DNA of 57,627 nucleotides from a virus (IMGVR_UViG_3300031702_000006:1-57627); one strand, 5' to 3'. Numbered from the stretch's first letter, positions 9,401 through 57,627 are shown. A program made the numbers and translations. Notes: generated from the sequence alone by a model not told the origin.

Positions 9401-12400
9401 TCTTTGTGGAATTTTAAAATACTTATAATTCCATCTATATCTCCTAGTTTTTTTATTTGATATAACTGATATTCATGTTGTGTTTTTCTAAATTTATTTA
9501 AAAATTTAGGATCATCAAAAGCACTTCCTGGGTTTATATCAATACCAAGTAAAGCTTTTAATGTTATAGCGCTTAAAGCTTGTTCTATCTGTTCGTTAGT
9601 CACTTCACCAAAATCACTCTCAGTTACAAGTTGTTTTTCTAGATCAACAATAAACTTTTTAGCAGGAGAAGTTAATTCTTTAGCATATTTACCTATAGTT
9701 TCGTCAGACACGCCAGTATCTTCAAGCACATCACTAAGTATTAAGCGCATACTCTTAACGCTGCGGTCGGAAGATACAAATCTCTGTATTATCTCACCTT
9801 GCTCTTGTTTAACTAAGTTAAGTTGTTTTTTAGTTAAATTAGATTTACTAAATTTTAAAGTAGGCTGTTCTTTTGCGGTTTGTTCTGGTTTGTACATTTC
9901 AAAACCAATCTCATCTACAACTCCATCTGATCCGTAATCAAACGTTTCCGCAGTCCAGCCTAATTCTTTAGATAGTTTATCTAATAGAACGTCATAAAGC
10001 TTAACTCTACTAGTTTCACTAGTTAAAGCATTAAAACGAACAGTAGCTATGTTTGGATTTGATTTTATTTCATCAATCACACCATTGTAAATAATACTCA
10101 CAGCTTTAAACTGATCTCCTTTACCTGTTAATTCTTGACTTCCATCTTGATCAAATTCTAATGAATAATCAGTAGGATCAGCATCTTGATCAGCTCCTAA
10201 GTCTCTAGCGTTTAATTGTACATTATATGTCTTATCGCCAATAGTAAAACTGGTATTACGATTCTCAGCTTCATCTATAGACCAATCTAAATCTTGTTTA
10301 GTACTTAGACTAAACTTTAAGGTAGGCGCTCTATCTATTTCTGATAATACTTTAGCTCTTTTAGCTGGTTCTATTTTACCTTCAGTAACTTCAGGAGCAG
10401 CATCTTTAACTAGAGTCTCAACTATTACAGATACTAAACCAGCTTTTCTTTTTTGAGTAAAAAACTTTTTAATTTGTTCTAATGTAGGAGTAGGTAGTTT
10501 TTCGTATACAAAAGCTCCAGACGTTAAGCTTTGATTTTTAGGCAATTTTCCTTGCTCTACAGCCTTTAATATTTCAGCTTTTTTAGTTAATCTTGGAAGT
10601 TGTTTAAAGAATATCTTATCTTCAACTTCTCGTTCTAATTTAACTAAATCTCTTTGAGAAAAATCTTTTAAAATATATTGAGAAGGATCTTTAGGGTTTA
10701 AATACTTATTTATAAATACATCGTCAATAGCTGTTTCTTTTCCTACAATTTTATAAATTTCTTTTTTTAGTCCACTTTCTCTTGCTTTTTTATTTACAAA
10801 AGCAACGAGCTTTTTATCAGGTAGATCTTTTTCTAATATTTCACTTGAAACTTTCTTAGCTAAGTCATATATTTTATCTCCTTGATTTATACCTAATTTT
10901 CCTCTAAGTTTAGACGTAGTTGATTTAATTTTAGTTTCGTCTATAGAAACTTCATCAGCAGCAATACCTTTAGCTTCAGTTACATCATCTGTAAATTCTT
11001 CACCTAGTATTCTTTTAGACGCTTCTATAGCTCTAGCTGGTAAAAACTTATTTATATAAGCAGCCAATGGAACACCAGACTCAGGTTTATATTCTTTAAT
11101 TAAATCTAATATACCACGTTTACCTGTTTCTACTTCGTCAGTAAGTAGCTGTCTGTCAAACCCTGGAGCTTGAGATCTTTTTTCTACTATTTTATTTGTT
11201 ATAGGTTTAAACTGCTCTATAATGTCAAAAGCAGCAGCTTCACCTTGTGTATCATATAGCTCTTGAACTTTAGTCGATGCTTCTTCAGATCTAGAATCTT
11301 TTATAATCTGTTCGTCTGTTTGAATTTTATCAGCAACTAATTTACCTTTAATTCCTTCAGCTGCTTTCACTTGAGCTTTAGTTAATCCTGTAGAGTCTAA
11401 GCTTTTATTATAATCTTTTATAAAATTATAAACATCTTTACCATTGTTAAACTTAACTTTAACTCCTAAAGCTTGAAGCGTTTTACGTATAACGTCACCA
11501 ATTTTAGTAAATACACCTTCATTAAACTTAATGTCTTCTGTTCTAATAGCATCAGAAAACAAAGTTAACACCTCTTCAGCTTGAACAGCTGATGGATCTG
11601 ATTTATACTGTTCTAGTCTTTTAGCAAAATTACTGTCTTTTACCTTGTTAGCATCTATGCTATTTATATATTCTTTTAAAGAATTACCTAAAGCTAATTG
11701 CGTTTCAGGACTATTACTAACGGTCTTAAACAGAAGTGCATGTAAAAACTCGTGAGTAGGCGCAGCTACAGCCATTTCTAAGTTAGCTATTTCTCTATTT
11801 ATGACTATTGTTTGTTTTCCTGTTTTTGAGTTTTGAATTATAAAACCTTGTTGACCAGACGCTTTTTTATCTTGCCCTTGTTCGTTTAAAAATGCTTCAG
11901 TTTCTTCAGTGCTAGCAAACTCCTGAACGTCTAAATCTTTAATGCTTTCAGCAGCTTTTTTAACTTTTTCAATTTCTTGGGTAACTGCTTTAGAACCAAC
12001 GTCTTTTAGACCTTTGTCTATTTCTTTTACTCTATCCGATTGCTCGATAGTTAAATTAGGCTCGCCAATTTGTTTTATTTCGTCTTTCAACTGTTTCTTT
12101 TCTTTCATCAATCGAACAGCTAAAGCTTGATCTTCTGTTGAAAGTCTTAAGGGTTTTATTTGGTTTGAAGCTCCTTGAGTAGTTATAAAATTTTTTTTAA
12201 TTTCATTACCTTGCTCTAATGTTATTTCTCCTTTTTTAACTTTTTTATCAACTTCATAATCAACTATTTCTTGACCATTTTTAAGAGAAGAAATAGCTAT
12301 TTGAGCTTCTTCTGTTGAAGCGTCAGCAGTGAAAGCGTCTGCAGCATTTTCATATTTAGTTTCTCTTATAGCATTTGAAGCAGCAACTTCATCTTGCAAA

Positions 12401-16547: not shown

Positions 16548-18017
16548 TTAATATGACGACTCTACGTATTCAGATGATGCAGCGAATAATTCTTTCATGC
16601 CACCTACATCTGTAACAGAATCGGTTGACATTGTAACTGTTGCAAAATAACCTTTTATACCGGTCATATTTGCTCCAAATAATACTTCTCCAGCAGCTGC
16701 AATACTATTATTTGTTAAATTAGTCATATATTTATTCTCTTTTCGGTTAAATCCAGCATGATTTATTGGAGGAATTAATATTACTCCAGGACCAGATTCA
16801 TTGCCATAATCATCATAAGAACCTTGATTATAACTATATACAACAGGTGCTAAAGTGTTTCCGCTAGAATCAATAGATCCAACTATATCTTGATTACCTT
16901 CTGTATAAGCTAAGACATCTATAGGAGTTCCTTGACTAGCTACTCCTGTTGTATCAGAAACAAAATTATCAACTTGCCAACCATTTCCACCTTCGTAATT
17001 TAAAGTTTTAAAAACCTTAGACATACTTACCTTAGGATTAAATATAAATTTTATTTTAGAAGGACTAGAAACTCCATAAAAAACACCTCTAGTATTAGGA
17101 GCGGTACTGTATTGTTTATATAATATACCGTTATTCATAGTGTAAAATGAATTTCTAACGCTAACTCCACCAGAAGGTTTATATGTAAAAAAGCTAGGAA
17201 AACCGTTTACACTATCATCGAAAGCAACTGTAGAGTACAAACCGCTACTAGGCTGTAATGATAACACGTATTGTTTATTGTGAATATCCCACATACCTAA
17301 AGCTTTACCTGTAGAACTAACGGTTGTATCTAAAGCGCTTAGTTGATCTCTAAAGAAATCACTCATACCGTAATTAGAAATTTCAGTTATACCATCATTA
17401 GAAAGCCTTAAAACAACATTTCTATCTTTGTCTGTAAAGTATTTTCTAGTACCGTATATAGCAAAACTTTCTGGATTTCTACTTATACCGTAATTACCAC
17501 TATAAGGAGTTATAGCTCCTATGACTAAACTAGAAGAAGTGATAGAACCTCCACCTTCAGCTGAATATATAGCGTCTTTATCTATTAAAGCTCTACTTAC
17601 TTTGGATTCTTGAAATATAGTTAAATTAGTATTTTCAGCATGTAATTTCTGTATAGAACCTTTTGCTGGATTTAAGCTTTTAGTAATATCATCTCCAATA
17701 GAAAAAACATTAGTATTATTTACGCCTGTCCGCGAATTAAAAATACCAGAATATATAAGTGAACTTGTTCTGCTAATTGCATTAGGTTCGTCTTCTACTA
17801 AATAAGCTTTAGCGCCTAAACTTACAGATGTATTATTATAACCACCTCTAATTCTAGATTCTTCTACAGCCCAATTTAAAGGATTAACTTCGTTTTCTGC
17901 TTGAGGGTGAGTATTATCACCTCTAGAGCCGTTCCAGTAAGGTTCGCCATTGGCGCCTGTTGTGCTTGTCTTTCTTAGTATGAAGCTGTTAAAGTATTTT
18001 ACTTCTATTACACCCAT
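16548..18017 (-). CDS. tail stabilisation / nozzle protein, C-terminal-type subunit
   Basis: YGISRNPESFA, YFTDK, GITEISNYGM, KVFKTLNYEG motifs of crAss-like stabilisation proteins. Confidence 0.75.
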   Translation of the reverse strand: MGVIEVKYFNSFILRKTSTTGANGEPYWNGSRGDNTHPQAENEVNPLNWAVEESRIRGGYNNTSVSLGAKAYLVEDEPNAISRTSSLIYSGIFNSRTGVNNTNVFSIGDDITKSLNPAKGSIQKLHAENTNLTIFQESKVSRALIDKDAIYSAEGGGSITSSSLVIGAITPYSGNYGISRNPESFAIYGTRKYFTDKDRNVVLRLSNDGITEISNYGMSDFFRDQLSALDTTVSSTGKALGMWDIHNKQYVLSLQPSSGLYSTVAFDDSVNGFPSFFTYKPSGGVSVRNSFYTMNNGILYKQYSTAPNTRGVFYGVSSPSKIKFIFNPKVSMSKVFKTLNYEGGNGWQVDNFVSDTTGVASQGTPIDVLAYTEGNQDIVGSIDSSGNTLAPVVYSYNQGSYDDYGNESGPGVILIPPINHAGFNRKENKYMTNLTNNSIAAAGEVLFGANMTGIKGYFATVTMSTDSVTDVGGMKELFAASSEYVESSY

Positions 18018-25390: not shown

Positions 25391-25422
25391 GATATAATAT
25401 AATTAAAAATTAAAGAATAAGA

Positions 25423-25462
25423 GTAGAAGTTACCCCCGTTGATTGAACGAGGGTAAATCTAC
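25423..25462 (-). terminator. hairpin after major capsid gene
   Basis: GTAGA..TTACCC.CGTT / AACG.GGGTAA.TCTAC inverted repeat. Confidence 0.7.
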
Positions 25463-25470
25463 AATAGTTA

Positions 25471-26955
25471 TTAAATTCCTTGGAATAAAACAAAGTTATT
25501 AGCAGCTTGCACTACTAAACATCTTTCAGACAAGAAGTTAACTTGCATTGCATCTAGTTGAGATGTGAATGCGCCTCCAGCTGAACCAGTTAACCAAGAC
25601 TTCATACGTCTGTCTTCAGTTTCTGAAGCTCTGTATCGTACGTGTAAAAATGGTCTACGGATATTTGTTCCTAAAATTTGATCGTAAACTGTTGAAGTTC
25701 CAGCAGGAACAAGAACACCTTCGATTGAATTGATACCTACTTGAGCACCACGAGTTGAAGCGTCATTTAAGTATTTCCAGTCAGTTTTATAGAAGTCATA
25801 AGATCCTCTGCGGAAACCACTAAATCCAAGATTTAATGCCATTTCTTCAGAGTTTTCAAATAATCCATAAGCTGTACCACCTTGGAATCCAGAAGAAATA
25901 GCTCCTAACATGTTATCAAAGTCTAAAGACGTTTGACGCTGTAAGAACAACATGTTTTCTTCAATAGCTCCTTGAGTGTCTAAGTTTTTAAGGATTTCAT
26001 CGAAATCATCTAAACCACCAGCCCCTGAAAAAGCAACCTCAACATTACCTCTAGCTTGAATAGCAGCAAATAAACCTTGAGTTCCTTGGAAACCAGCAGT
26101 AGCTGCAGCTGCACCCGCGGTAGCAAGTTCACCTTCAATAACACTCATTTCTAAGTAATCTTCAAAACGCAAGCGAGTTTCAGATTCAGCTTTTAAATAC
26201 CATAAGTATCCAGACGTTCCGTCTTCAGCAGCAACTTCCACCCATCCAATCTGCGCCATGTCCGATCCGTTTACAACGTATTCGTTTCTGATGATAATTG
26301 GGTTATTAGAAAATTGAGTGAATGAAGGAGTAATGCTAATTTGTGGTTGAGCTGCATTTGCTAAAGCATTTGCACCTGCGTTGTTCGCTCCTACGGTATT
26401 AGAACCTTTTACAAATTCAGAACCATATACAAACATTTTAACCGTCGAAACAGCTGCAAAACCTAAAGGAGCAATAGTTAAATTGTTCGCTAAATAAGGA
26501 GCTAACTGTACTACTCCTGTAGCTGTATTACTTGAAGTAACAACACATTTTGCTTCGTTACCTACTTGATCCGTAACAACTACAGTTTGACCTGGAGAAA
26601 CAACATTCTGAATAGCTGTAGCACCGGCTCCACCGATAGGAATTACAACTTGACTAACGGCACCAACCAAAGCATGCGCTAATCCGCTATATGCTATGTG
26701 TAGTCTATTTTGTTCTGACCAAATTACTTGATCTGAAGTCATTGGAAGCTCTGCTCCAACCATACGTAGAAATCCTGAAAGAGTTCTGTTACCGTAACGC
26801 TCTACCTCTTGCTCGTAAACTTCAGGTAGGTACTGTTGAGCAAAACTAGAAAAGTTTGCACCAGCAGCATTGTTAAATTGTAAATAATTAGTTTGTAGCA
26901 ATTGTTGTGATTGCGACGGCACTAATGAGCCAAATTGTGGCTGTAATTGTCCCAT
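25471..26955 (-). CDS. major capsid protein
   Basis: QQYLPEVYE..VERYGNRT, WSEQNRLH and GFSGFRRGSYDF motifs; follows portal and scaffold; downstream hairpin. Confidence 0.88.
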   Translation of the reverse strand: MGQLQPQFGSLVPSQSQQLLQTNYLQFNNAAGANFSSFAQQYLPEVYEQEVERYGNRTLSGFLRMVGAELPMTSDQVIWSEQNRLHIAYSGLAHALVGAVSQVVIPIGGAGATAIQNVVSPGQTVVVTDQVGNEAKCVVTSSNTATGVVQLAPYLANNLTIAPLGFAAVSTVKMFVYGSEFVKGSNTVGANNAGANALANAAQPQISITPSFTQFSNNPIIIRNEYVVNGSDMAQIGWVEVAAEDGTSGYLWYLKAESETRLRFEDYLEMSVIEGELATAGAAAATAGFQGTQGLFAAIQARGNVEVAFSGAGGLDDFDEILKNLDTQGAIEENMLFLQRQTSLDFDNMLGAISSGFQGGTAYGLFENSEEMALNLGFSGFRRGSYDFYKTDWKYLNDASTRGAQVGINSIEGVLVPAGTSTVYDQILGTNIRRPFLHVRYRASETEDRRMKSWLTGSAGGAFTSQLDAMQVNFLSERCLVVQAANNFVLFQGI

Positions 26956-28208: not shown

Positions 28209-28236
28209 AATAAAATAATATAAAATTAATAATTCC

Positions 28237-47455: not shown

Positions 47456-49996
47456 TTAACAGGTTGATGTATTTAATAATTGTCCGCTAGCTGCAACGTT
47501 GTATAAAATACTACCATCAGTAAACTGACCGGAGCTTCCGCTAACACCTATCGTTATGTTAGTACCGTTGTTTGCGGTAAATATAAATTCTCCACCCACA
47601 GGCCCATTAGGACTAGATGGAGCTCCTCCGCTTGATGTTCCATAGAAGCGAGTTACTATATTAGATTGATTATCACACGGAACTGGTGGATCGCCAGGAG
47701 GCTGTTGGTATTGATTTATCGTCATGCTCACAGGTTGTAAAGGATAAATCACAGTGACCGCGTTTTCACTTGTTGTCGTTTGTCTTACATTAGATCCTGC
47801 AGCTGCTACGGCGGTAAGTGTTGCTTGAGCCGGATTAAATGTAGCTGGCGTAATAGTTAAAACTGAAGGAGCAATTGCTACCAAAGTAGCAGACCAAGTT
47901 ACTGTAGCACCTACAGGGATGTTGGTTTGCGTTGGATTTTCTTCGTTAGTGAAACTAAATGAAGTACCATTAACATTACACGTGGCAGTTAAAGTTGCAT
48001 TAGTACCTAAAATTAAACCAGTTACATTAGTAGTCTTAATACCATACTGCGAAGTTGTTGTGGCTGCTTGAACTTCAGCCACTACATTAACTGTAAATGC
48101 AGATCCAATTGTTTGTGTTGGCGTAACTACTGTGGCTGTCGGAGTTCCTACAAAAGAATAAGCTATATCATTTAATGTAGGAGTAGCACTATTTAAAGTT
48201 ATTGACGTGCCTGCGGTTGCCGCTATTGTTTGACTAGGAACATTTCCAGAAACAGCATTTGCACCTGCTGTGTTAAGGACAGTTATTTTGCTATTATTAA
48301 ACCCGGCAGGTGTTCCAGTTATAGTGAAATTAGTAGTAATTGTTGAAGTTGAGCTTATAGCTTCATACGTTGCGTCAACAGATCCAGTAACAGTTTGATC
48401 AACTGTTGCAGTTCCTGCTTCGGTTACTGTCGGTGGAGATGCGTTAGTGAAAGGAGAATTCCATTGATATAGATTCTGATCAATTATTTTTGCTATTAAA
48501 GTAAAACTATAATTTAAAGAACCTATATCAGCCTGCGTATCGCCTGGCAAACTTCCACCACCATCTCTAGTCCAATTCCATATAGTACCTTCACCTCCAG
48601 CTGTATTACTTCCTAAACTACCATTAGCCGCTAACGTGACTGTTACGGTGTTAGCAACTCTTTGAGCTATAGTTGCTGTCATTGTATTTGTGACTGATGT
48701 TACACCAGCAATAAAATTTCTTGTTGGTTGATTGACGGATACCGCCGTAGAGAAGTAGTAACTTGCGTTAACAGTCGCCCCACTATTAAAAGTATACGGA
48801 GTTCCTATAAGGCCAGGTCCTTTAGTATCGCCATTTTGGGCACCGGTTACGGTAAATCCTGATGGACCTAATAAGGCAGCTGGGCCAACACCCGTGACGT
48901 CTAAAGCTAGTGTAACTGTTTCTGTTACTGGTGGGGTTGCTGGATTAGCAATGGTTAAATATAAGAAATTAGGATCTTTAGTGCCTAAGTTAGTATACTC
49001 AAGCTCTGTCAATGTTACTATTTGATTAGCGATAGGTACTGTGCCTGAGAAACCACTTGCGCTTTTATCGAAAGTATGCGTTATAGCATCGCCATTAGTT
49101 CCTCCGCCTGAATTAGCGTCTATATATGTCTTAACAGCTGTCAACGCTGTTACCGGTATAGATTCGAATGTTGTGGTTTTAACATCTCCAGCAGTGTTAC
49201 CACCTAGATGGTTAAACGCTATATAGTCTAATGGATCTGCAACCGTAGCCGCTTCACTTACTTCGATGTAATTATTATTACCTACTAAATCAACTGCTAG
49301 TGTTGGGTTCACTGTAGACACTCCAGTGCCTTGAAGTTTTAGACCTACGCCTGCGGATACAGACACTACAGATCCAACGTTTGTGTTGTTAGCTGTTATA
49401 GTTACTGCACCAGTTCCACCGGTGGGTGATATAGATATACCTACTCCTTCTACTATACTGGTTACACCGGTATTTATAAGTTGCACTGTACCTACACCTG
49501 TAGTAGGGGTTACACTAACACCTACGCCTGTTGTTATTTTTTCTACCACGTTCTGTGGACCTTGTATCTGTACATCTACTACTCCACCTTGGCTGCTAGC
49601 AAAAACTCCATCACCTGAAAAATTTATAGAAGTAACTGAATTAGTAAGTTCAGCTCCATCGCTTGATATAGATACCCCGCTATTAGTTGTAGGTATAGCC
49701 CATTGGCCGTCGCCTCTGTAGAATGTAGTAGCTGATGGCGTGCCTCCGTTTTGAGCCAAGCCAATTGTTATCGTACCTGGAGCAGGACCAGTTATTGGAC
49801 CACCTGTTGCCGTAAGAAAAGCATCTGTTGCTAGTTGAACAGAGGTAACTGTACCAGCTGAAGCTATTTGACCAACTAAAGCAGCTACTTGCCCCATGGT
49901 ATAACTAACCGTGGTGTTTTCGTTGCTAACATCAGTACCTATCAGTAGGTCTTCAGCTGTTGGCGTTGAGCCCGGGTATGAATAAATTATTGACAT
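47456..49996 (-). CDS. second fibre / spike-like structural protein
   Basis: shares the MSIIYSYP N-terminus with the long fibre; GTVTSV and TTFYRGDGQW motifs; Thr-rich Ig-like repeats. Confidence 0.75.
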   Translation of the reverse strand: MSIIYSYPGSTPTAEDLLIGTDVSNENTTVSYTMGQVAALVGQIASAGTVTSVQLATDAFLTATGGPITGPAPGTITIGLAQNGGTPSATTFYRGDGQWAIPTTNSGVSISSDGAELTNSVTSINFSGDGVFASSQGGVVDVQIQGPQNVVEKITTGVGVSVTPTTGVGTVQLINTGVTSIVEGVGISISPTGGTGAVTITANNTNVGSVVSVSAGVGLKLQGTGVSTVNPTLAVDLVGNNNYIEVSEAATVADPLDYIAFNHLGGNTAGDVKTTTFESIPVTALTAVKTYIDANSGGGTNGDAITHTFDKSASGFSGTVPIANQIVTLTELEYTNLGTKDPNFLYLTIANPATPPVTETVTLALDVTGVGPAALLGPSGFTVTGAQNGDTKGPGLIGTPYTFNSGATVNASYYFSTAVSVNQPTRNFIAGVTSVTNTMTATIAQRVANTVTVTLAANGSLGSNTAGGEGTIWNWTRDGGGSLPGDTQADIGSLNYSFTLIAKIIDQNLYQWNSPFTNASPPTVTEAGTATVDQTVTGSVDATYEAISSTSTITTNFTITGTPAGFNNSKITVLNTAGANAVSGNVPSQTIAATAGTSITLNSATPTLNDIAYSFVGTPTATVVTPTQTIGSAFTVNVVAEVQAATTTSQYGIKTTNVTGLILGTNATLTATCNVNGTSFSFTNEENPTQTNIPVGATVTWSATLVAIAPSVLTITPATFNPAQATLTAVAAAGSNVRQTTTSENAVTVIYPLQPVSMTINQYQQPPGDPPVPCDNQSNIVTRFYGTSSGGAPSSPNGPVGGEFIFTANNGTNITIGVSGSSGQFTDGSILYNVAASGQLLNTSTC

Positions 49997-50008
49997 ATAA
50001 TGTTTTTG

Positions 50009-50107
50009 TTAAATTGTAACTGGAATTGTACCTATATACATGTTAGTAACAGGTAGTATTCCGATATATATATTAGTTATTGGTTTTATACCTATTTTTA
50101 CCGCCAT
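50009..50107 (-). CDS. 32-aa triple-repeat peptide, first gene of late block
   Basis: hand-translated MAVKIGIKPITNIYIGILPVTNMYIGTIPVTI; lies downstream of a late-promoter motif. Confidence 0.65.
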   Translation of the reverse strand: MAVKIGIKPITNIYIGILPVTNMYIGTIPVTI

Positions 50108-50135
50108 AGTGTTGCTTGTTAGTTGTTATACTCTA

Positions 50136-50164
50136 TATACTTACAGGTTTTACATGTGTTTTAC
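50136..50164 (-). promoter_or_regulatory. putative late promoter heading the structural block
   Basis: GTAAA-N15-GTAAGTATA. Confidence 0.5.
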
Positions 50165-50203
50165 TATTCTTACATAACCTAATACCGGTAATTTTACAAA
50201 ACA

Positions 50204-50247
50204 GTGACACTTGCCCCTTACTAGTAACCTTAACAGGCTAATGTCAC
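50204..50247. repeat. operator-like element, copy 1
   Basis: GTGACACT-N19-TAACAGGCTAATGTCAC; recurs at 56285. Confidence 0.75.
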
Positions 50248-50528
50248 TAAAATATGCTATTATAGGGAAGTAAAGTCTTATACCCTATCTGCTTGACTGT
50301 CAGCCACTTACCAAAACGGTTTTCATTTAGCCCACGGCCCCACATTTTTCAGCATTTTGCCGAAACATTCCGGCTTTTACTAGCATATACCCCTAGTATT
50401 TCAGGCTTTACTATGCATAAACTATATTTATAGTTGCATATATACTATAACATATCATTATACTATTACTATAGGCTATATCTATACTATATTACTATTA
50501 TATAACTATTATTTATAGCTAAAGCATA

Positions 50529-50554
50529 TGACAGTGTGTCATGACATTGTGTCA
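50529..50554. repeat. tandem TGACA-N3-TGTCA palindromes
   Basis: TGACAgtgTGTCA TGACAttgTGTCA. Confidence 0.75.
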
Positions 50555-50606
50555 CTGCATTATACATTAACATACTATTATATAAATAAATATATACACA
50601 CCTTTA

Positions 50607-50638
50607 TACAAACTAAATACGATATCATATGGATAATA
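50607..50638 (+). promoter_or_regulatory. early promoter-like repeat 1
   Basis: TACAAACTAAATACGA-N8-GGATAATA. Confidence 0.8.
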
Positions 50639-50683
50639 TATATGTAAGCAAGCAACGAAGCTCTTACGCCTAATATCACTACA

Positions 50684-50860
50684 ATGACTGTACAAAACTT
50701 AGCTAAGCTAGAATTAGCGAAAATGAATGAAAGTTATTATGGTAGCGAAAAGCAGATAGCTAAAGAAATAGTTATAATGAAAGCTAGTAAGATAGAAATG
50801 CTTTACAATGAAACCATAGAAGAATGGCTTTACAAAGTAAGTACGAGTATAGCTGGATAA
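50684..50860 (+). CDS. small early protein (58 aa, MTVQNLAKLE...)
   Basis: hand-translated; lies between repeats 1 and 2. Confidence 0.55.
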   Translation: MTVQNLAKLELAKMNESYYGSEKQIAKEIVIMKASKIEMLYNETIEEWLYKVSTSIAG

Positions 50861-50862
50861 TA
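50831..50862 (+). promoter_or_regulatory. early promoter-like repeat 2
   Basis: TACAAAGTAAGTACGA-N8-GGATAATA. Confidence 0.8.
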
Positions 50863-50915
50863 CTAGTGAGAGTTTTATAGAATTGATTGCCTCTAAAATA
50901 TTAATCAATGAAAAA

Positions 50916-51023
50916 TGAGTGAATGGATTAGTGTAAACCACGATAGCTAGTAAGTTTGAGAAACTTGCATATAAAAAATAGTTCCGTCGATGTGTCCAGA
51001 AAGTTCGATTCTTTCTCACTCAA
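50916..51023 (+). ncRNA. tRNA-like RNA with non-canonical interior
   Basis: 7-bp acceptor TGAGTGA/TCACTCA, T-arm GAAAG-TTCGATT-CTTTC, no normal D or anticodon arm. Confidence 0.6.
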
Positions 51024-51037
51024 CTAAAATTATAAAT

Positions 51038-51172
51038 ATGAATGCAATAGAATTTGTAGGCGAAATGGATCGTCTAGCAGAAGTACACTTCGGCGAATTT
51101 GGTTATGCTACATGTAGCAGTGATGAACAAAAAGTAGTTATTAAACTGTTATTACACAACTTAAAAAAGTAA
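51038..51172 (+). CDS. small early protein
   Basis: MNAIEFVG...HFGEFGYATCS; ATG after the tRNA-like element. Confidence 0.65.
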   Translation: MNAIEFVGEMDRLAEVHFGEFGYATCSSDEQKVVIKLLLHNLKK

Positions 51173-51305
51173 ATATGAATAAAGTAAACAAGTTAATACA
51201 AACCTATTCAAACCCAAATATGAATAGAGAAAAGCTAAGTTATAAAATAAAAGACTATTATAACTTAAATGAAAGCGAAAGATTACATTTTTTATACTGG
51301 ATATA

Positions 51306-51485
51306 ATGATTAAAGAATTTGAATGGAACAAAGATACTTTAGAGTATTTTAGAAAGCATAACAAAATAGATTATGATAAGCAAAGTGAAATGAGAATGTT
51401 TGTAGAAAACAATTGTGTTTTAGAAGACGGTGAAAGCTATGAAGATTTAATAAAAGATTTAGAACTACAAAGTAAATACGAATAA
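51306..51485 (+). CDS. small early protein (59 aa, MIKEFEWNK...)
   Basis: hand-translated; ends inside repeat 3. Confidence 0.6.
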   Translation: MIKEFEWNKDTLEYFRKHNKIDYDKQSEMRMFVENNCVLEDGESYEDLIKDLELQSKYE

Positions 51486-51497
51486 AAAAGGATAATA
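51466..51497 (+). promoter_or_regulatory. early promoter-like repeat 3
   Basis: TACAAAGTAAATACGA-N8-GGATAATA. Confidence 0.8.
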
Positions 51498-51502
51498 CTA
51501 AT

Positions 51503-51631
51503 ATGAATAATATATACGACAAGAAGTTTGAAATCTACTTAGTAAAAAAAGGTTTTAACTTAGATACTATTAGCTTACAAGAATGCTTAACACAAATCAA
51601 AATATGGAAAAGGAATATCGCAAGCGTATAG
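51503..51631 (+). CDS. small early protein (42 aa)
   Basis: ATG 5 nt after repeat 3 (leaderless-like). Confidence 0.45.
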   Translation: MNNIYDKKFEIYLVKKGFNLDTISLQECLTQIKIWKRNIASV

Positions 51632-51713
51632 GTTATTTATCTACAAGAAGTAGATTTTGCTTAACCAGTAGAAAACAATTATTACAGTTACAAAAAGAAT
51701 TAAAAACATTATT

Positions 51714-51944
51714 ATGCAAATAGAAATAGACACTGTAGACTTACAGAACACACTCGAGCAATTATATGATCGCAAAGTAAAATTAGTTGCGTATGCGAGC
51801 GCTGATGGATTAGATACATTAGTACTTGAAGGAAATGAGGAAGATCTTTTTAATTTCTACTTAGAATCTTTCAATCCATTTAATGAATGGACTAATACAG
51901 ATGTTGTAAGATCAGAGTTTTTTGCTCACATACTTACAAAGTAA
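51714..51944 (+). CDS. small acidic early protein
   Basis: ORF track; stop lies inside repeat 4. Confidence 0.65.
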   Translation: MQIEIDTVDLQNTLEQLYDRKVKLVAYASADGLDTLVLEGNEEDLFNFYLESFNPFNEWTNTDVVRSEFFAHILTK

Positions 51945-51966
51945 ATACGATAATAAACGGATAATA
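51935..51966 (+). promoter_or_regulatory. early promoter-like repeat 4
   Basis: TACAAAGTAAATACGA-N8-GGATAATA. Confidence 0.8.
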
Positions 51967-51981
51967 TAATAAACAAACAAT

Positions 51982-52233
51982 ATGAATCAAATGCAAACAC
52001 CAAACGAGTACTTACATCAAATGCAAGAAGCATTAAGCGATTATGAGGTTAACGAAGATAATCATTACGACTATTTACATGAAGTCATAGACACTATGGT
52101 GATATATACATCGACTTGTAAACAAATTATAAACGATTTAGATTACGATATATTTCAAGAACACGAATTTGGTCAAGCTAAAAGTTACGAACAAGCAGCA
52201 TTTTGCGCACTATACGATTTATACACAGCATAA
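51982..52233 (+). CDS. acidic early protein, Ocr-like DNA mimic candidate
   Basis: YDYLHEVIDTMVIY resembles the Ocr-family D.IHE..D..V..Y pattern; very few basic residues. Confidence 0.5.
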   Translation: MNQMQTPNEYLHQMQEALSDYEVNEDNHYDYLHEVIDTMVIYTSTCKQIINDLDYDIFQEHEFGQAKSYEQAAFCALYDLYTA

Positions 52234-52234
52234 T

Positions 52235-52396
52235 ATGACAGACAAACAAATAGAAATACTAGACAGAACAGACAAGATCAAGCTACTAAACATAGATGGC
52301 AAAGTAAATTACATTTATAATGGCTTTAGAGAGCATTTTCCTAAAGAAACACTAGATGAAGCAAGAGAATATTTTAAATCAAATCTAACCAAGTAA
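52235..52396 (+). CDS. small early protein
   Basis: MTDKQIEILD...; ATG just after the previous stop. Confidence 0.6.
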   Translation: MTDKQIEILDRTDKIKLLNIDGKVNYIYNGFREHFPKETLDEAREYFKSNLTK

Positions 52397-52550
52397 TATG
52401 AAAAACGAAGACATAATAGCGCAATACAATATGCTACTAGATGCAGAGCTAGAAATTTACTTACAACAACAACAATACGAAAACTTATATGAGTAGAAAA
52501 TTTAAACTAAGACACAGTAACTTTTTTAACAAACCAAAAACCAGAACAAT

Positions 52551-52775
52551 ATGAATATGACAGAACTTAAACAATACATGATAGATAACAAGCGAATCAA
52601 AGTAGCTCAATGGAATAAAGATCGTCAAGGCAATCACTGTCAAGGCTTTACACAAAAAGAGTTTGAACAGTCTATGGAAGTTGATAGAATTAAATCTAGA
52701 ACGCGTAGAACCCACTCTAAAGGCAATCACTGGAATTTTAATGATACTAAAAACAGAGAGCTTTTTACAAAGTAA
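52551..52775 (+). CDS. small basic early protein
   Basis: ORF track; stop lies inside repeat 5. Confidence 0.65.
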   Translation: MNMTELKQYMIDNKRIKVAQWNKDRQGNHCQGFTQKEFEQSMEVDRIKSRTRRTHSKGNHWNFNDTKNRELFTK

Positions 52776-52797
52776 ATACGAGTACAAGTGGATAATA
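52766..52797 (+). promoter_or_regulatory. early promoter-like repeat 5
   Basis: TACAAAGTAAATACGA-N8-GGATAATA. Confidence 0.8.
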
Positions 52798-52810
52798 TAA
52801 TAAACAATAT

Positions 52811-53155
52811 ATGAGAATCAAAAGAAATTTAATGAATCAAATGATAGCTGAAGACGTAATGTCAGGCGTGTGGCCAGCTTATCACAACAGTAAAAACGGT
52901 AATAAGTGTTGGAGCTTATACAGAGGCTCTAAAGGGCTTTATTCAGAAGCCAATACTAATAGTCCTAAGAACACTTTAGTCTTACACAACGGCTCTCAAA
53001 GCTCTTACGTTTCACTATCGTGTGACAGCTTAGAGATGGCTGAGTATATAACTAATCACGAAATGAACTTCACTAAAACTTTAAAGCGTGACAAAGCAAG
53101 GTCAGAGTATCTAGCTAGCGAAGAAGGTAAATGGGGTAGACAAGACAGCTTTTAA
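52811..53155 (+). CDS. early hypothetical protein
   Basis: ORF track; directly after repeat 5. Confidence 0.7.
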   Translation: MRIKRNLMNQMIAEDVMSGVWPAYHNSKNGNKCWSLYRGSKGLYSEANTNSPKNTLVLHNGSQSSYVSLSCDSLEMAEYITNHEMNFTKTLKRDKARSEYLASEEGKWGRQDSF

Positions 53156-53160
53156 CGTCA

Positions 53161-53278
53161 GCGCAAGGTAGTTTATAAAAGGTAAAACGTTATAGCTTAT
53201 GATGCACGATATGTGAATTACGTAATAGCATAGAGAGGCTAGGTTATAATCTAGCGGGTTCAAATCCCGCTCTTGCGC
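53161..53278 (+). ncRNA. tRNA-like RNA with expanded anticodon arm
   Basis: acceptor GCGCAAGG/TCTTGCGC, D-arm GTTT..GG..AAAC, stem TTATAGC/GTTATAA enclosing about 46 nt, T-arm GCGGG-TTCAAAT-CCCGC. Confidence 0.75.
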
Positions 53279-53283
53279 CTAAA

Positions 53284-53354
53284 GCGAGATTGGCAGAATG
53301 GTTATGCATTGCCCTTCCAAGGCAACCAAGCAGGTTCGATTCCTGTATCTCGCT
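53284..53354 (+). tRNA. tRNA-Gly(TCC)
   Basis: full cloverleaf: GCGAGAT/ATCTCGC, TTGCC-CTTCCAA-GGCAA, T-loop TTCGATT, U discriminator; CCA not encoded. Confidence 0.93.
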
Positions 53355-53359
53355 CAACT

Positions 53360-53391
53360 TACAAACTAAATACGAACACAATAGGATAATA
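53360..53391 (+). promoter_or_regulatory. early promoter-like repeat 6
   Basis: TACAAACTAAATACGA-N8-GGATAATA. Confidence 0.8.
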
Positions 53392-53408
53392 TAATAAAAC
53401 AAAACAAT

Positions 53409-53750
53409 ATGACAACATTAGAAAAATTTCAAGAAGTAGCAAACATCGAATTTATTCAAACGCCTTCGCTTGCAGATATAGAGATCGGCGAATTAAATAC
53501 AGCTGACGGCTACGAATTATTTTATGTAACGCAAGACATTCAAAATTTAAACTACGAAAACGAATTGTTCTACTACAAGCCAGATTTTGATACTATCATG
53601 AGCGAAATATTAAATGCTAGAATATCATCAAATGTAGTCACAGTTTTTGTATACGATGTTGATGACCACTTTGACGAGTTCTACATGCTTGACTATATTG
53701 AAAGTGAAATAGATGAAGAAGAATTTGAAAAGTTCACAGAAAATGCATAA
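53409..53750 (+). CDS. highly acidic early protein
   Basis: ORF track; D/E-rich; directly after repeat 6. Confidence 0.7.
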   Translation: MTTLEKFQEVANIEFIQTPSLADIEIGELNTADGYELFYVTQDIQNLNYENELFYYKPDFDTIMSEILNARISSNVVTVFVYDVDDHFDEFYMLDYIESEIDEEEFEKFTENA

Positions 53751-53849
53751 GGCTTGGCGATTATACTTGCTCGATAACAAGAGCTTGACAGAGATAAGCA
53801 AAATGCTTAACATCACTAAAAACAAACTTATTAACGAATACGGATTAAA

Positions 53850-54047
53850 ATGAACAAATTAAAGAAAGTAAACAAAACAAGAATCAAACTTAATGGTAAA
53901 TCTTACAAAGGCTATTTAGTCGGCGATCTACCTCCTACATTTGCTTATATTACAGCAGAAGACATAAACGAGTTTGGCGAAGTAGAAAACACTCCAGGTA
54001 TTAAATCTTGGTTTAATCACAAGGGTTTAACATACATAGGACAATGA
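53850..54047 (+). CDS. small early protein
   Basis: ORF track. Confidence 0.65.
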   Translation: MNKLKKVNKTRIKLNGKSYKGYLVGDLPPTFAYITAEDINEFGEVENTPGIKSWFNHKGLTYIGQ

Positions 54048-54292
54048 GAAAGTTAATATTCCAACTGTACAACGATAATATAATAACAATTGAAGTAGCA
54101 AATCTACTCATAGACCAACACGAAAAATGAAACAATTCGCGCAAGAGAGTTATGATAAATTAAAATCTGTGAAAAGACATAGAATTAATTTCTTTTTAGA
54201 AGAAAACATAAAAGAAATCTTTGGCAAATGTACTAAAGAATTAAAACTACTTGTCTTACAAGACATGATAAGCGACACAAAAAAAACATAAT

Positions 54293-54511
54293 ATGACACA
54301 AAAAGAAAGAAAAGACAGAATATACAACAAAGCGTTTGCAATGATAGCAACGTTAAAGATAGAGATTAAATCTTTAGATGAGACAATCCCTTACTTTGCT
54401 TATACTCAAGATATGATTGATGGGCAAATAAACTTTAAAGAGCGTGAATTAGAACTATGGAATCATATAGCTTTTTTAAACGAACAAGACGAAGTCTGTC
54501 AGATTTACTAA
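54293..54511 (+). CDS. small early protein
   Basis: ORF track. Confidence 0.65.
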   Translation: MTQKERKDRIYNKAFAMIATLKIEIKSLDETIPYFAYTQDMIDGQINFKERELELWNHIAFLNEQDEVCQIY

Positions 54512-54518
54512 TTTAAAT

Positions 54519-54591
54519 TGGTCTATGGTGTAACTGGCAACACGTCTGGTTTTGGTCCAGAAGAGTCTAGGTTCGAGCCCTAGTAGACCAA
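54519..54591 (+). tRNA. tRNA-Gln(TTG)
   Basis: cloverleaf: TGGTCTA/TAGACCA, TCTGG-TTTTGGT-CCAGA, CTAGG-TTCGAGC-CCTAG; CCA not encoded. Confidence 0.93.
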
Positions 54592-54611
54592 CTAACATTA
54601 AACTATATACT

Positions 54612-54761
54612 ATGGCAGGAAATAAATACAATCCACCTAAAAGGCCTTATAAGCCTTATACATACACGCTAAACTATATTAACGAACAAGGTTCTAATGA
54701 AGCTGTTCAAGGTACAGCTAAGCAGATAATGCTACATATTCTTAATCAACATACAAAGTAA
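54612..54761 (+). CDS. small early protein (MAGNKYNPPK...)
   Basis: ATG after the tRNA; stop lies inside repeat 7. Confidence 0.55.
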   Translation: MAGNKYNPPKRPYKPYTYTLNYINEQGSNEAVQGTAKQIMLHILNQHTK

Positions 54762-54783
54762 ATACGAACAATAAAGGATAATA
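54752..54783 (+). promoter_or_regulatory. early promoter-like repeat 7
   Basis: TACAAAGTAAATACGA-N8-GGATAATA. Confidence 0.8.
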
Positions 54784-54786
54784 TAT

Positions 54787-55074
54787 ATGACAGACAAACA
54801 AATGGATGATCTAGCAGTGCGTGTAGCTACTAAAGTTATCAAAGCTATATTCAATATATCATCAGAAGTTCATCTAGTCTTCGATGGCAAAGAAAACCCA
54901 GATGACTTAATGATCAATGATACAGAAGATCTAGCAAGACAATCAATAGAGCTAGAACTTATAAGGTTGCAAAGCCTACTAGATAGATACATACAAGAAG
55001 AGGCTTTCGAAAAAGCACACATAATAAAAAGAAAAATACAAAAACTAAATGATGAATATGACGGATTTAATTAA
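54787..55074 (+). CDS. UVR (UvrB/UvrC) motif protein
   Basis: LDRYIQEEAFEKAHIIKRKIQKL matches the UVR helical hairpin. Confidence 0.65.
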   Translation: MTDKQMDDLAVRVATKVIKAIFNISSEVHLVFDGKENPDDLMINDTEDLARQSIELELIRLQSLLDRYIQEEAFEKAHIIKRKIQKLNDEYDGFN

Positions 55075-55900
55075 ACAAGGTAAATTTGCAATGCTTGCAT
55101 TCGCACAACAAAAAAAAGCAATTGATTGGCAACAACAGTTGTTCTTACAACCTAAACTCGATGGCGTACGTTGCTTGTTCACAAAGCAAGGTGCATACAG
55201 TCGCAGCGGTAAAAAGTTCAAAAACGTACAGCATCTACGTCGTGAGCTTAAACCTTTCTTCGCGGCTAATCCTAATCTAGTACTAGATGGCGAATTATAC
55301 AACCACGATTACAAAGACAACTTCAACAAGATTATATCTATTGTTCGTCAAGGTAAACCAACGGCTAACCAAACTCTAATACAGTTTCACTGCTATGACA
55401 TTGTGTCACCTTACTACGCATCCGCCCCTTACTCTGTTCGCGCAGAAGGCATTGCTCACTACTTTAAAACATATAATCTAACCTATTGTCACACTGTACC
55501 ATCAGTTCCAGTTACAAACAAAGGCTTAGCTGTTATCAATAACAATATCAACCTTAAAGCAGGCTACGAAGGCTCTATACTACGTACAAACTTACCTTAT
55601 GAAAACAAACGATCAAACAACTTACTCAAATTCAAAGCTTTCCAAGACACAGAAGCAACAATCACTGGCTTTGTCGAAGGCAAAGGTAAGCGAAGCGGTA
55701 CTATTGGCAAATTCATGGCTATTGATAGCAATGGTATTACTTTTGGCATGCCTGTCATGGAAAATTATGACATCATGCGTACTATGTTTGCCAACGCTAA
55801 TGATTATGTCGGCAAAGTAGCAACGTTCACTTTCTTCCAAAAAACTCCAGCAGGTTCTTATCGTCACCCGCTATTCAAAGCTATACGTAACTATGAATAA
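55058..55900 (+). CDS. lig: ATP-dependent DNA ligase (minimal)
   Basis: QPKLDGVRC adenylation motif, LDGELY, YEGSILR, LLKFK, RHPLF; exact start uncertain (55049-55058). Confidence 0.93.
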   Translation: MTDLIKQGKFAMLAFAQQKKAIDWQQQLFLQPKLDGVRCLFTKQGAYSRSGKKFKNVQHLRRELKPFFAANPNLVLDGELYNHDYKDNFNKIISIVRQGKPTANQTLIQFHCYDIVSPYYASAPYSVRAEGIAHYFKTYNLTYCHTVPSVPVTNKGLAVINNNINLKAGYEGSILRTNLPYENKRSNNLLKFKAFQDTEATITGFVEGKGKRSGTIGKFMAIDSNGITFGMPVMENYDIMRTMFANANDYVGKVATFTFFQKTPAGSYRHPLFKAIRNYE

Positions 55901-56065
55901 ACCGTTAGTAGATAGCACATGGAACTGTTTGTGCGGAGCTTTAAACGCAGGATATAAAGAAACCTGTGGTAAATGTAATAAAACAAAAACAAATGAGCGT
56001 AAGACTATTTAAACACATTACTGAAACAAACCTATTTAATATTAACCTTAAACGTAAAAGAAAAG

Positions 56066-56281
56066 ATGACAATAAAGTTCGGAAACAACAAAATCCTGTG
56101 CACTCGAAGAAGAGATCATAAAGCTTATCTTTGGAATGAGATATATACTCTTAGACAAGATATAATAGATGACGTGATGCTTGCCGCGAGAAACGACAAA
56201 TCACTTGATGAACCAGAATTAAAAAGAAAAGCTATGTTAATCAGAAAATATAGCCGTAGACTAAAAACCATTTCAATTTGA
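56066..56281 (+). CDS. hypothetical protein
   Basis: ORF track. Confidence 0.6.
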   Translation: MTIKFGNNKILCTRRRDHKAYLWNEIYTLRQDIIDDVMLAARNDKSLDEPELKRKAMLIRKYSRRLKTISI

Positions 56282-56284
56282 AAT

Positions 56285-56330
56285 GTGACACTAGGCTACT
56301 AATCAAAGAAGAGTAACAGGCTAATGTCAC
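56285..56330. repeat. operator-like element, copy 2, overlapping the start codon of the HTH gene
   Basis: GTGACACT-N21-TAACAGGCTAATGTCAC. Confidence 0.75.
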
Positions 56331-56941
56331 ACCGAAACATAGAACATTTAAACAATAATCGTATTATATACAGAAGACTACCTGTGTTAGATAAACCTAG
56401 TCATTCATTTGACTGGGGTTATTACTTTGAAGATGGTACGCATGAGTTTTATGATTTATTTAGAAGTAAAGCATTGATAAACACATACAAATCTTTAAGA
56501 TGGCACTTAAGAGTTATATGGCATTTAAATCCTGAGTTGACGCTTGATAAGTTTATTAACTTATGTAAGTTCATAGCAGATAAAAACAACGGATTTACTA
56601 CATTCACAATAAAGCCAGACAAATTACTGCATGTAATAAACGATATTAACAAATCAGATTTAGAAGAACCTCCTAATAATAAAGAAAGAAAAATAATATT
56701 TAAAGATTATTGCGGTCTTGATACTGAAGCGAAGCTAAAAGTAGTTGGCTCATTAAGCGGTAGAAGAAGTACAACTAGTGAGACCGATATATACGAGGCT
56801 ATGTTAATCATCAATCACAATAATAAGCGGATAACTATGCCTAGTTTGGCGAGCATGTTGAAATGCTCAGTAAGAACAATACACAGAAAAATGAATGATA
56901 AATTAAAACAAGAAAAAACAATTTTAAATGAAAAAGTATAA
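56324..56941 (+). CDS. C-terminal HTH DNA-binding protein (replication-initiator-like)
   Basis: ITMPSLASMLKCSVRTIHRKM helix-turn-helix. Confidence 0.7.
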   Translation: MSHRNIEHLNNNRIIYRRLPVLDKPSHSFDWGYYFEDGTHEFYDLFRSKALINTYKSLRWHLRVIWHLNPELTLDKFINLCKFIADKNNGFTTFTIKPDKLLHVINDINKSDLEEPPNNKERKIIFKDYCGLDTEAKLKVVGSLSGRRSTTSETDIYEAMLIINHNNKRITMPSLASMLKCSVRTIHRKMNDKLKQEKTILNEKV

Positions 56942-57627
56942 CGTACAAAACTATATAAGGTACAAAGAGGATGTTAAAATATCTCAGCCTAATTTAAAAG
57001 ATCTTACTGGTTATACTAGAGACGAACTTATAGTTAAATTTCTACCTTTAGTAGAAAACATAGCACGTAAGTTTTCAACCACTCAGCAAGCATCTGGCGT
57101 GATGACTATAACAGATCTAATTCAAGAAGGCAGTGCTGGTTTAATAAAATCAGTAGACAAGCTAGACTATGATATGCTAGGCGAGTCAGAAGACAAAGAA
57201 AAAACTCTTAAATCTTTCTTTTCAAAGAGAATTAAAGGATCTATTAGAAGAGCTGTAGATACTAACAGAGGCGATATAAGAATACCAGAGCATAAGATGA
57301 ATGAGATTCGCAAGAATCCTAATGATGAAGCTATGGTAAGCATGTTCTTTAATAGTATATTCTTAAGTATAGACTCTAAGCCTTATGATGACGATGAAGA
57401 TTTAACGTATCAAGTTCCTGATAATTCAGAGCCATACAATATAGCTCTAATGAATTCGTATTTAAAAGGTTTAATGCAAAAGCATTTAAATAAAAACGAA
57501 TATGAAGTACTTAGATTATCTTATGGATTAGACTGTGATAAGCATTCGGCAAAAGAAATTGCGTTCCTTTTAAACATCAAAGGAGCAAGCGATTACGTAA
57601 GAATATCAGAGCTAAAGAAGCAAGCTG
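56928..57627 (+). CDS. sigma-70 family RNA polymerase sigma factor (3' truncated, absent from ORF track)
   Basis: hand-translated: LIVKFLPLVENIARKF, DLIQEGSAGLIKSVDK, IRRAVD...IRIPEH, region 4 LNKNEYEVLRLSYGL...SAKEIA. Confidence 0.92.
   Translation, partial: MKKYNVQNYIRYKEDVKISQPNLKDLTGYTRDELIVKFLPLVENIARKFSTTQQASGVMTITDLIQEGSAGLIKSVDKLDYDMLGESEDKEKTLKSFFSKRIKGSIRRAVDTNRGDIRIPEHKMNEIRKNPNDEAMVSMFFNSIFLSIDSKPYDDDEDLTYQVPDNSEPYNIALMNSYLKGLMQKHLNKNEYEVLRLSYGLDCDKHSAKEIAFLLNIKGASDYVRISELKKQA

Follow-up and report, generated by a model that had tools for sequence, protein, structure and literature searches.

A repeated 32-bp promoter-like motif at the head of the early-looking gene arm of uncultured, probably flavobacterial phages, and a phage sigma-70-family protein as its candidate reader

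Some podoviruses, among them phiEco32 and Salmonella phage 7-11, encode divergent proteins of the sigma-70 family (gp36 and gp47, respectively), which redirect the host core RNA polymerase (RNAP) to a conserved phage-specific motif present in 6–8 copies (tAATGTAtA for gp36, GTAAtg-N16-aCTA for gp47; PMC8948821). Transcription starts 6–9 bp downstream of these motifs, an early/middle arm diverges from the late arm, and the sigma promoters precede middle or late genes, whereas the early genes depend on host sigma70 promoters. In the present work we analyzed a linear virus record of the IMG/VR database in its entirety (IMGVR_UViG_3300031702_000006; 57,627 bp, referred to as the window; estimated completeness 89%), in which a 32-bp motif, TACAAASTAARTACGA-N8-GGATAATA, occurs seven times on the same strand as a gene for a sigma-70-family protein. 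By analogy, the phage-sigma promoters of phiEco32 and 7-11 would be the nearest known systems: the shared traits are a podovirus-encoded divergent sigma-70-family protein, a highly conserved motif specific to the phage, a start site placed at a similar distance downstream of the motif and the divergence of the two gene arms. There are also differences. Here, the motif is confined to an early-looking cluster of small genes, it carries an additional invariant ACGA at positions -25 to -22, many of the predicted transcripts would be leaderless, and the host belongs to another phylum. Most likely, the phage infects marine Flavobacteriaceae, because the nearest GenBank phages as judged by the terminase are MW202828.1 (62% identity), followed by phages of Flavobacterium, Cellulophaga, Tenacibaculum and Maribacter. 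No earlier description of the motif or of the sigma/promoter pair was found in the literature searched, supplements being outside the search, and the papers listed for queries with 10–13-nt pieces of the motif concerned unrelated primers and aptamers only.

A preliminary description of this DNA had reported seven plus-strand copies of the motif between 50607 and 54783. Indeed, exact matches start at positions 50607, 50831, 51466, 51935, 52766, 53360 and 54752, all on the plus strand and within 4.2 kb, and the two conserved blocks are separated by a spacer that is constant in length (8 nt) and variable in sequence, as had been stated. The 32-bp pattern was absent from 100 dinucleotide-preserving shuffles, and no additional site was detectable in the window when up to three mismatches were allowed. 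The core ACGA-N9-GATAATA recovered the same seven sites, with zero matches on the reverse strand and zero for a reversed-pattern control, and nowhere else in the window do the two halves of the motif co-occur. Five of the seven copies share sequence with the final codons of the open reading frame (ORF) before them, one begins 4 nt after a tRNA-Gly gene and one is located in non-coding DNA. The notion that most copies reside a few nucleotides upstream of an ATG applies to five of them (3, 5, 13, 15 and 17 nt from the motif end to the next credible ATG, read from the sequence), but not to the copies at 50607 (45 nt) and 50831 (~175 nt).

To locate the putative transcription start, 180 unique motif instances drawn from a scan of IMG/VR were aligned. 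As these instances were selected by the pattern itself, only their flanks are informative. The base 6 nt past the motif is A in 58%, G in 38%, T in 4% and C in 0% of the instances, i.e. a purine in 96%; counted from the hexamer GATAAT, this is the base 7 nt beyond the last T. The comparison thereby places the likely start at 6 nt, within the 5–8 nt downstream of GGATAATA that had been predicted. In the commonest arrangement (53 of 180 instances) an ATG opening an ORF of at least 30 codons sits exactly at this base, which implies a leaderless mRNA; the second main class has nnnRYGTAAC in this position, with a leader of 15–45 nt rich in A behind it. If the purine is taken as +1, GATAAT covers positions -12 to -7 and hence provides A-11 and T-7, while the 16-bp block TACAAACTAAATACGA spans -37 to -22. 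A-11, T-7 and a distance of ~6–7 nt to a purine start are the features of a sigma-70-type -10 element, the start being derived from the alignment. A -35 element would be expected 16–19 bp upstream of the hexamer; the conserved TTACA ends ~21 bp and the most invariant upstream bases, ACGA, end 9 bp before GATAAT.

Applied to the window, this geometry yields seven approximate start sites. Copy 1 (50607–50638), the non-coding one at the head of the plus-strand arm, would start at G50644 and leave a ~40-nt leader to the ATG at 50684. Copy 2 (50831–50862), a GTAAGTACGA variant, overlaps the 3' end of ORF 50684–50860; its predicted start at G50868 is followed by ~170 nt without an ORF, containing a tRNA-like stretch (50916–51024). 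For copy 3 (51466–51497) the predicted start A51503 is the A of an ATG, and a leaderless mRNA is expected. The TAA within copies 4 (51935–51966) and 5 (52766–52797) provides the stop codons of ORFs 51714–51944 and 52551–52775, respectively, and putative starts at A51972 and A52803 would give leaders of 10 nt to ATG 51982 and 8 nt to ATG 52811. Copy 6 (53360–53391), located 4 nt past tRNA-Gly (53284–53355), would start at A53397 with a 12-nt leader to ATG 53409. Copy 7 (54752–54783) is the last one before the ligase and sigma genes; ATG 54787 lies 3 nt past the motif and the start is predicted at or near this position. In relatives, the ATG of the homologous gene (MTDKQ...) is found 5 nt after the motif.

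Other records carry the motif as well. The exact pattern, written in IUPAC code, was found in at least 169 IMG/VR stretches. These are spread over ~107 contigs, which have several copies apiece in one orientation. In each related genome the early arm is headed by 3–12 copies on a single strand, and six whole genomes contain 5–12 copies each (up to three mismatches), again on one strand and at the early-arm head. The family consensus reads TTACA...A.ACGA-N8-nGATAATA. Lineages differ in the upstream block and in the base at -13, while ACGA-N8-nGATAATA is retained. By genome, the -13 base is G in 24, A in 12, T in 4, C in 3 and mixed in 13 cases, and it is constant within many genomes. Variant lineages carry AGATAATA, TGATAATA or CGATAATA, the last of these in two lineages, together with altered upstream blocks such as ATATAGGTTTAACACGA and CTCACCnnTTAAATAATT. 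We conclude that the motif is real and widespread, and it very probably represents a class of promoters. The genes behind it are called early here on account of their content and position.

Which protein could read this motif? An evident candidate is encoded 2 kb downstream of the motifs on the same strand. The gene at 56928–57626 (plus strand; ~20 C-terminal residues are lost at the end of the record) specifies a sigma-70-family factor as judged by Pfam (Sigma70_r2, 1.5e-5) and PHROG 351 (sigma factor, 4e-19). Full-length relatives have ~254 residues and precomputed matches to PF04542 and PF04545, i.e. regions 2 and 4. Among solved structures, FliA/sigma28 (1rp3) is the best match by sequence (2.5e-7). 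The NCBIfam models place the protein in the sigma-70 superfamily only, below all subfamily cut-offs, and a score of 40.8 bits against a cut-off of 189.6 for the FliA/WhiG model rules out a FliA orthologue. An AF2 model built from 53 sequences (pLDDT 78.5) aligned over its full length to the sigmaA, sigma70 and sigmaS chains of holoenzyme structures, and going by these results the phage protein is a full sigma factor with regions 2, 3 and 4. A protein search returned homologues in at least 8000 clusters at E<=0.001, many of the weaker of which may be ordinary sigma factors, and tblastn of the window sigma against GenBank phages gave no match at E<=1e-5.

Motif and sigma gene occur together in both directions of search. 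Of 31 long contigs bearing the motif, 30 encode the sigma protein (53–74% identity). Conversely, 80 loci were collected with the sigma gene as anchor. The canonical motif (up to three mismatches) was present on the sigma strand in 47 of the 52 loci with at least 8 kb of upstream sequence, mostly 1–10 kb upstream of the gene, and only two matches were seen on the reverse strand in all 80 loci. The five exceptions proved to be lineage variants of the same architecture. Under a correspondingly relaxed rule, 3–12 copies were found in 56/56 loci having at least 6.2 kb upstream, 24 loci with less than 6.2 kb being excluded. Among cultured GenBank relatives by large terminase (TerL), MW202828.1, elemoA, phi18:3, phi38:1 and Gundel_1, none of the five has a homologue of the sigma, and counts of the core motif equal those of the reversed-pattern control. 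In the three host metagenome-assembled genomes (MAGs) tested, the only match was a remote one, to a host sigma of 287–308 residues (E 1e-4 to 1e-3).

We propose that the seven motifs form one promoter class, each copy firing a short rightward transcript from the purine 6 nt past GGATAATA. GATAAT (-12 to -7) would act as the -10 element, in which A-11 and T-7 are universal, and the 16-bp block at -37 to -22 would offer upstream contacts through TTACA near -38 to -34 and A-ACGA at -27 to -22. Host core RNAP equipped with the phage sigma-70-family factor would be the reader, while the housekeeping sigmaA of the host should not use this -10 element. The sigma operon would be expressed first, either from a conserved inverted-repeat region of its own or by read-through from upstream, and the sigma would then switch on, or boost, the small-gene cluster. 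With the sigma operon coming first, the promoters would be delayed-early rather than immediate-early. We regard the phage sigma as the most likely reader and assign a probability of roughly 0.5 to this assumption.

Covariation could in principle tie the sigma to the motif. Mutual information between sigma residues and the -13 base in 43 clearly labelled lineages was mostly noise. However, one clade with T at -13 (L266, L291, L299) carries K in place of R in the segment 'IRIPEH' of the sigma, a substitution absent from all 50 other sequences, and this segment belongs to region 3.0, which adjoins the DNA at -13/-14. Several observations speak against the phage sigma as reader. The R-to-K exchange arose only once in evolution, and L287 retains R despite its T at -13. 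The region 4.2 helix is near-constant and does not co-vary with the upstream block (ISELKK in the window with its canonical block, VSELKK in L294 with another block); therefore, another contact or another protein may read the block. Moreover, the most invariant upstream bases, ACGA at -25 to -22, are off the usual site of sigma region 4, and the gap between TTACA and GATAAT amounts to ~21 bp. The co-occurrence of sigma and motif is confounded by descent, since all sigma-bearing contigs are relatives, and G021, a motif-bearing genome rated complete, has no sigma match, its motifs being located at the contig end. Known phage sigmas usually serve middle and late genes rather than clusters of small genes of unknown function (PMC8948821). 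Finally, all seven would-be promoters of the sigma are upstream of its gene, so that expression of this gene must be started from another source, i.e. a separate host-read promoter, and no sigma-operon promoter fitting the Bacteroidota consensus was identified in the window.

The alternative that fares best involves a sigma factor of the host itself. In Flavobacterium johnsoniae, T-12, A-11, T-8, T-7, T-6 and G-5 of the -7 element are near-invariant, and E. coli-type promoters are stated to be non-functional in Bacteroidetes (PMC6847099); the -7 box is also used by the marine flavobacterium Zobellia (PMC7641319). Bacteroidota sigmaA promoters (-33 TTTG/-7 TAHHTTTG) and the phage motif have A-11, T-7, a long gap between upstream and downstream elements and the likely host phylum in common. 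In contrast, T-12, T-8, T-6, G-5 and the TTTG are missing from the phage motif, which retains two of the six -7 positions of the F. johnsoniae consensus and bears out the mismatch to host promoters that had been noted at the outset (PMC6847099). The pattern TTTG-N19-21-TAnnTTTG is not enriched in the window (three matches, 1.9 expected).

Nevertheless, host RNAP with a host sigma could read GATAAT if a phage activator, either MotA/AsiA-like or of class II, bound the 16-bp block, the phage sigma then serving other promoters, for instance late ones. The block at -37 to -22 would be the activator zone, and the MotA box of phage T4 is located in the same zone. The scheme would also account for an upstream block that differs among lineages next to a constant -10 block and 8-nt gap, and for a region 4.2 helix that does not follow these differences. 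An A/T-rich element, TTAATT..TATATTATATT-ATG, in front of abundant late genes could be the real target of the sigma, and the exact motif precedes host genes in three Flavobacteriaceae/Flavobacteriales MAG chromosomes. However, the poor fit of the -10 block to the host -7 element and the disuse of E. coli-type promoters argue against a host sigma, and the one or two copies per host genome, confined to one repeated segment or a single locus, do not amount to a host regulon, an idea we dropped for this reason. Moreover, no activator was identified: the obvious candidate, a 205-aa protein with a helix-turn-helix (HTH) encoded next to the sigma, more likely targets its own conserved palindrome, and its gene is not in the usual place in L266 and L299, though the motif family is present there. 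We therefore consider host sigma plus activator a tentative alternative of rather low probability.

The late-arm element was found by k-mer enrichment in six genomes. In the window (25391–25473 and 28209–28236, minus strand), abundant structural genes are immediately preceded by TTAATT..TATATTAT(att)ATG, which in turn comes after a terminator hairpin, an arrangement present in 6/6 genomes. It may represent a second, late class of promoters that likewise gives rise to leaderless mRNAs.

As to the bacterial chromosomes, the exact 32-bp motif was found in a 1.39-Mb MAG contig (L187), an 812-kb contig (L188/L200 and L201) and a 195-kb contig (L194/L199), with genes for SusD, a BCCT transporter, RecG, ParA/ParB and Nramp in the neighborhood. 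In the first, the motif is located 101 nt before a TerB-domain gene, PADLOC reporting a weak match for a TerB-like protein (3.7e-4); in the other two it is part of a repeated ~200-bp segment before a small ORF with a signal peptide. Each host genome has one or two copies and lacks a close homologue of the phage sigma. A speculative and unlikely extension is that sigma and 32-bp promoter form a self-contained orthogonal pair in Flavobacteriaceae and that hosts captured the promoter as an infection sensor, be it for a 'promoter trap' defence or as a decoy; on this reading, host genes headed by the motif would stay silent until a phage supplies the sigma.

The preliminary description had concluded that the motif needs a phage specificity factor from the start of infection and had assigned this role to a sigma-like domain in a virion protein. 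The need for such a factor is plausible, given the promoter-like motif and its mismatch to host promoters, but its placement in the virion did not hold up, the evident candidate being the free-standing sigma gene. Activity from the start of infection is neither supported nor refuted; it lacks support because the sigma gene must be expressed before its product can act. In the virion proteins no sigma-like domain was detectable by Pfam (E<=0.01), BLASTP or hhalign: the lowest E obtained when 15 structural proteins were compared to the sigma by BLASTP was 0.53, hhalign probabilities of sigma against virion protein were 0.13% and 0.19%, and phmmer of the 2428-aa protein against PDB revealed no sigma-like match at E<=1. 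The first of the hhalign alignments pairs residues 1733–1780 of the 2428-aa protein with sigma region 4. This is probably the stretch that had attracted attention, and its sigma-like residues are not conserved in five homologues.

A reader, be it a factor or a polymerase, that is packaged in the virion and enters with the DNA to act on the motif from the first moment of infection nevertheless has its precedents, namely the virion RNAPs of phage N4 (vRNAP) and of the crAss-like phage phi14:2 (gp66), with which our phage shares an early cluster at the genome end and huge virion proteins (here 2428 aa and 1508 aa, of unknown function). The motifs also head the early-looking arm and mismatch host promoters, and a crAss-type muzzle domain (PF25729) is present. 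N4 virion-RNAP promoters form hairpins. In contrast, the motif is free of hairpins in 7/7 copies (z-scores +0.29 to +1.13, none folding better than shuffled sequence), and neither a polymerase motif nor a fold signal was seen in the virion proteins, which argues against a promoter of the N4 type. Phage phi14:2 injects its virion RNAP, and its early transcripts have no common upstream motif (bioRxiv 10.1101/2020.03.07.982082), unlike the transcripts predicted here. The DFDxD catalytic motif is absent from the 2428-aa protein, in which the only two DxDxD strings, DQDAD (1187) and DLDKD (1754), are outside the conserved blocks or not kept in homologues, which argues against a polymerase of the gp66 type as well. 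Together with the absence of an encoded single-subunit RNAP (see below), these results make a virion-borne reader unlikely.

The 2428-aa protein itself (6463–13749, minus strand) has no family match and no solved relative. It contains an HExxH (HEFLH) and repeated LKFS(K/L)S strings and is conserved among relatives only at residues 630–985 and 1737–2398. The muzzle domain resides in a 489-aa structural protein (16548–18017, minus strand; C-terminal domain of the crAss-virus muzzle protein, PF25729, 1.6e-10) and hints at a distant structural link to Crassvirales.

Two further promoter types were considered and rejected. T7-like single-subunit RNAPs recognize a contiguous conserved block of ~23 bp that extends across +1, whereas the present motif is interrupted by a variable gap of 8 nt. 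In neither the window nor the complete relative G014 (69.6 kb) did the plus arm show an ORF of RNAP size or a match to single-subunit RNAP families. A resemblance of the motif to TAATACGA in the T7 promoter was dropped as a lead because no RNAP gene was found. Sigma28 (FliA) promoters combine TCTAAAG at -36 to -30 with the -10 element (-15)GCCGATAA(-8) (PMC12784957). The phage motif resembles them in GATAA at -12 to -8 with A-11, and in CGATAA in some lineages, but lacks GC at -15/-14, and its -35 region, ACAAACT, matches at three of seven positions; combined with the sub-threshold FliA/WhiG score of the sigma, this argues against a promoter of the FliA type.

Parts of the window were retrieved from ten RNA-labelled public runs, four of which were compared at the level of assembled contigs only. 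RNA contigs span motifs (e.g. 51289–51623 and 52557–52892), in which read-through and DNA carry-over are not separable. In four metatranscriptome runs, contigs of related phages share the motif and diverge exactly at its edges (53360/53392 and 54751/54783), and in three of them the gene directly after a motif (53409–53750) is replaced by 10 nt (53392–53755). The promoters therefore mark cassette boundaries. That the motif is mainly such a boundary or recombination signal, or an RNA-level processing or translation signal, is improbable: although the divergence at its edges and its tight placement against ATGs would suit these roles, the motif lacks RNA structure, leaders varying from 0 to ~190 nt preclude a fixed part of a ribosome-binding site, the constant distance to a purine and the -10-like hexamer suit transcription initiation, and any repeated sequence, a shared promoter included, would lead to shuffling as a by-product.

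Should the phage sigma be the reader of the motif, a transcription switch would be defined for a group of uncultured phages of marine flavobacteria that is both large and widespread (>100 IMG/VR contigs). The consensus is sufficiently exact for start sites to be annotated by eye, and many of the resulting mRNAs are predicted to be leaderless; in the host phylum 87% of the transcripts have leaders of more than 10 nt (PMC6847099). A sigma/promoter pair ignored by host sigmaA would provide an orthogonal expression tool for Bacteroidota, in which E. coli-type promoters fail, and the variation among lineages in the upstream block and at -13 represents a natural mutational series for assigning contacts between protein and bases.

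How the sigma operon may be switched on is suggested by the DNA upstream of it. The sigma gene start is overlapped by the end of the gene for the 205-aa protein (56324–56941, plus strand), a phage-only protein with a C-terminal HTH (weak match to Pfam HTH_11, 0.0025), which may be a regulator or co-factor. Its clusters in the ESM Atlas are all viral, some with HTH families, and PADLOC reports a weak match to IetA (1.2e-4). The gene is found upstream of sigma in most relatives, L266 and L299 being the exceptions. An inverted repeat, GTGACAC...TAACAGGCTAATGTCAC, read from the sequence at 56285–56330 (plus strand), includes the ATG of the 205-aa gene in its right arm (GGCTAATGTCAC). Across relatives it takes the form (G/A)TGACA..AGCC-N15-20-GGCT(A/T)ATGTCAC and is kept upstream of the 205-aa gene in those compared, bar L293 with its different upstream ORF; L262/L263, L268 and L273 were displayed from a different ATG in this comparison. 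A second copy (50208–50249, plus strand) is located at the head of the plus arm, 360 nt upstream of motif copy 1, and is found at the early-arm head in four of six genomes (the window and likewise G014, G010 and G006). The inverted repeat may serve as a host-read, immediate-early promoter for the sigma operon, as an operator for the 205-aa protein or in both roles. Operator-like palindromes, ATGACAnTGTGTCA, occur three times (50528–50555 and 55395–55409), one of them as an exact 15-nt repeat within the ligase gene.

The genome as a whole consists of two divergent arms. A long minus-strand arm (5240–49996) carries structural and lysis genes, including large terminase, portal, GroEL/GroES, tail fibres and the 1508-aa and 2428-aa proteins. 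The plus-strand arm extends from ~50,600 through the small ORFs and two tRNAs to DNA ligase, the 205-aa HTH protein and sigma, and resumes at the beginning of the window, where it encodes MazG, a DUF1064 (endonuclease-like) protein and ribonucleotide reductase. As judged from G014, the piece missing from the window encodes Erf, exonuclease, primase/helicase and thymidylate synthase and contains no DNA or RNA polymerase. The small-gene cluster (50600–55074, plus strand), whose genes are preceded by the seven motifs, comprises ~20 ORFs of unknown function together with tRNA-Gly and tRNA-Gln. None of the 17 small ORFs scanned between 50684 and 56281 (16 of them within the cluster) matched Pfam at E<=0.01, and Rfam (E<=1) over 49900–57627 returned the two tRNAs, one chance match and nothing else. 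Two tRNA-like stretches, Thr(agt) at 50916–51024 and Arg(acg) at 53162–53279, were called by ARAGORN solely with introns allowed and missed by Rfam and default ARAGORN; both are downstream of a motif copy, the first directly after copy 2. Finally, contig CBDICL010000005.1 (117 kb, L185/L195; binned as Flavobacteriaceae) contains two identical motif-bearing stretches 62,630 bp apart and looks like a concatemer of a ~62.6-kb phage genome, which provides a possible link to the host.

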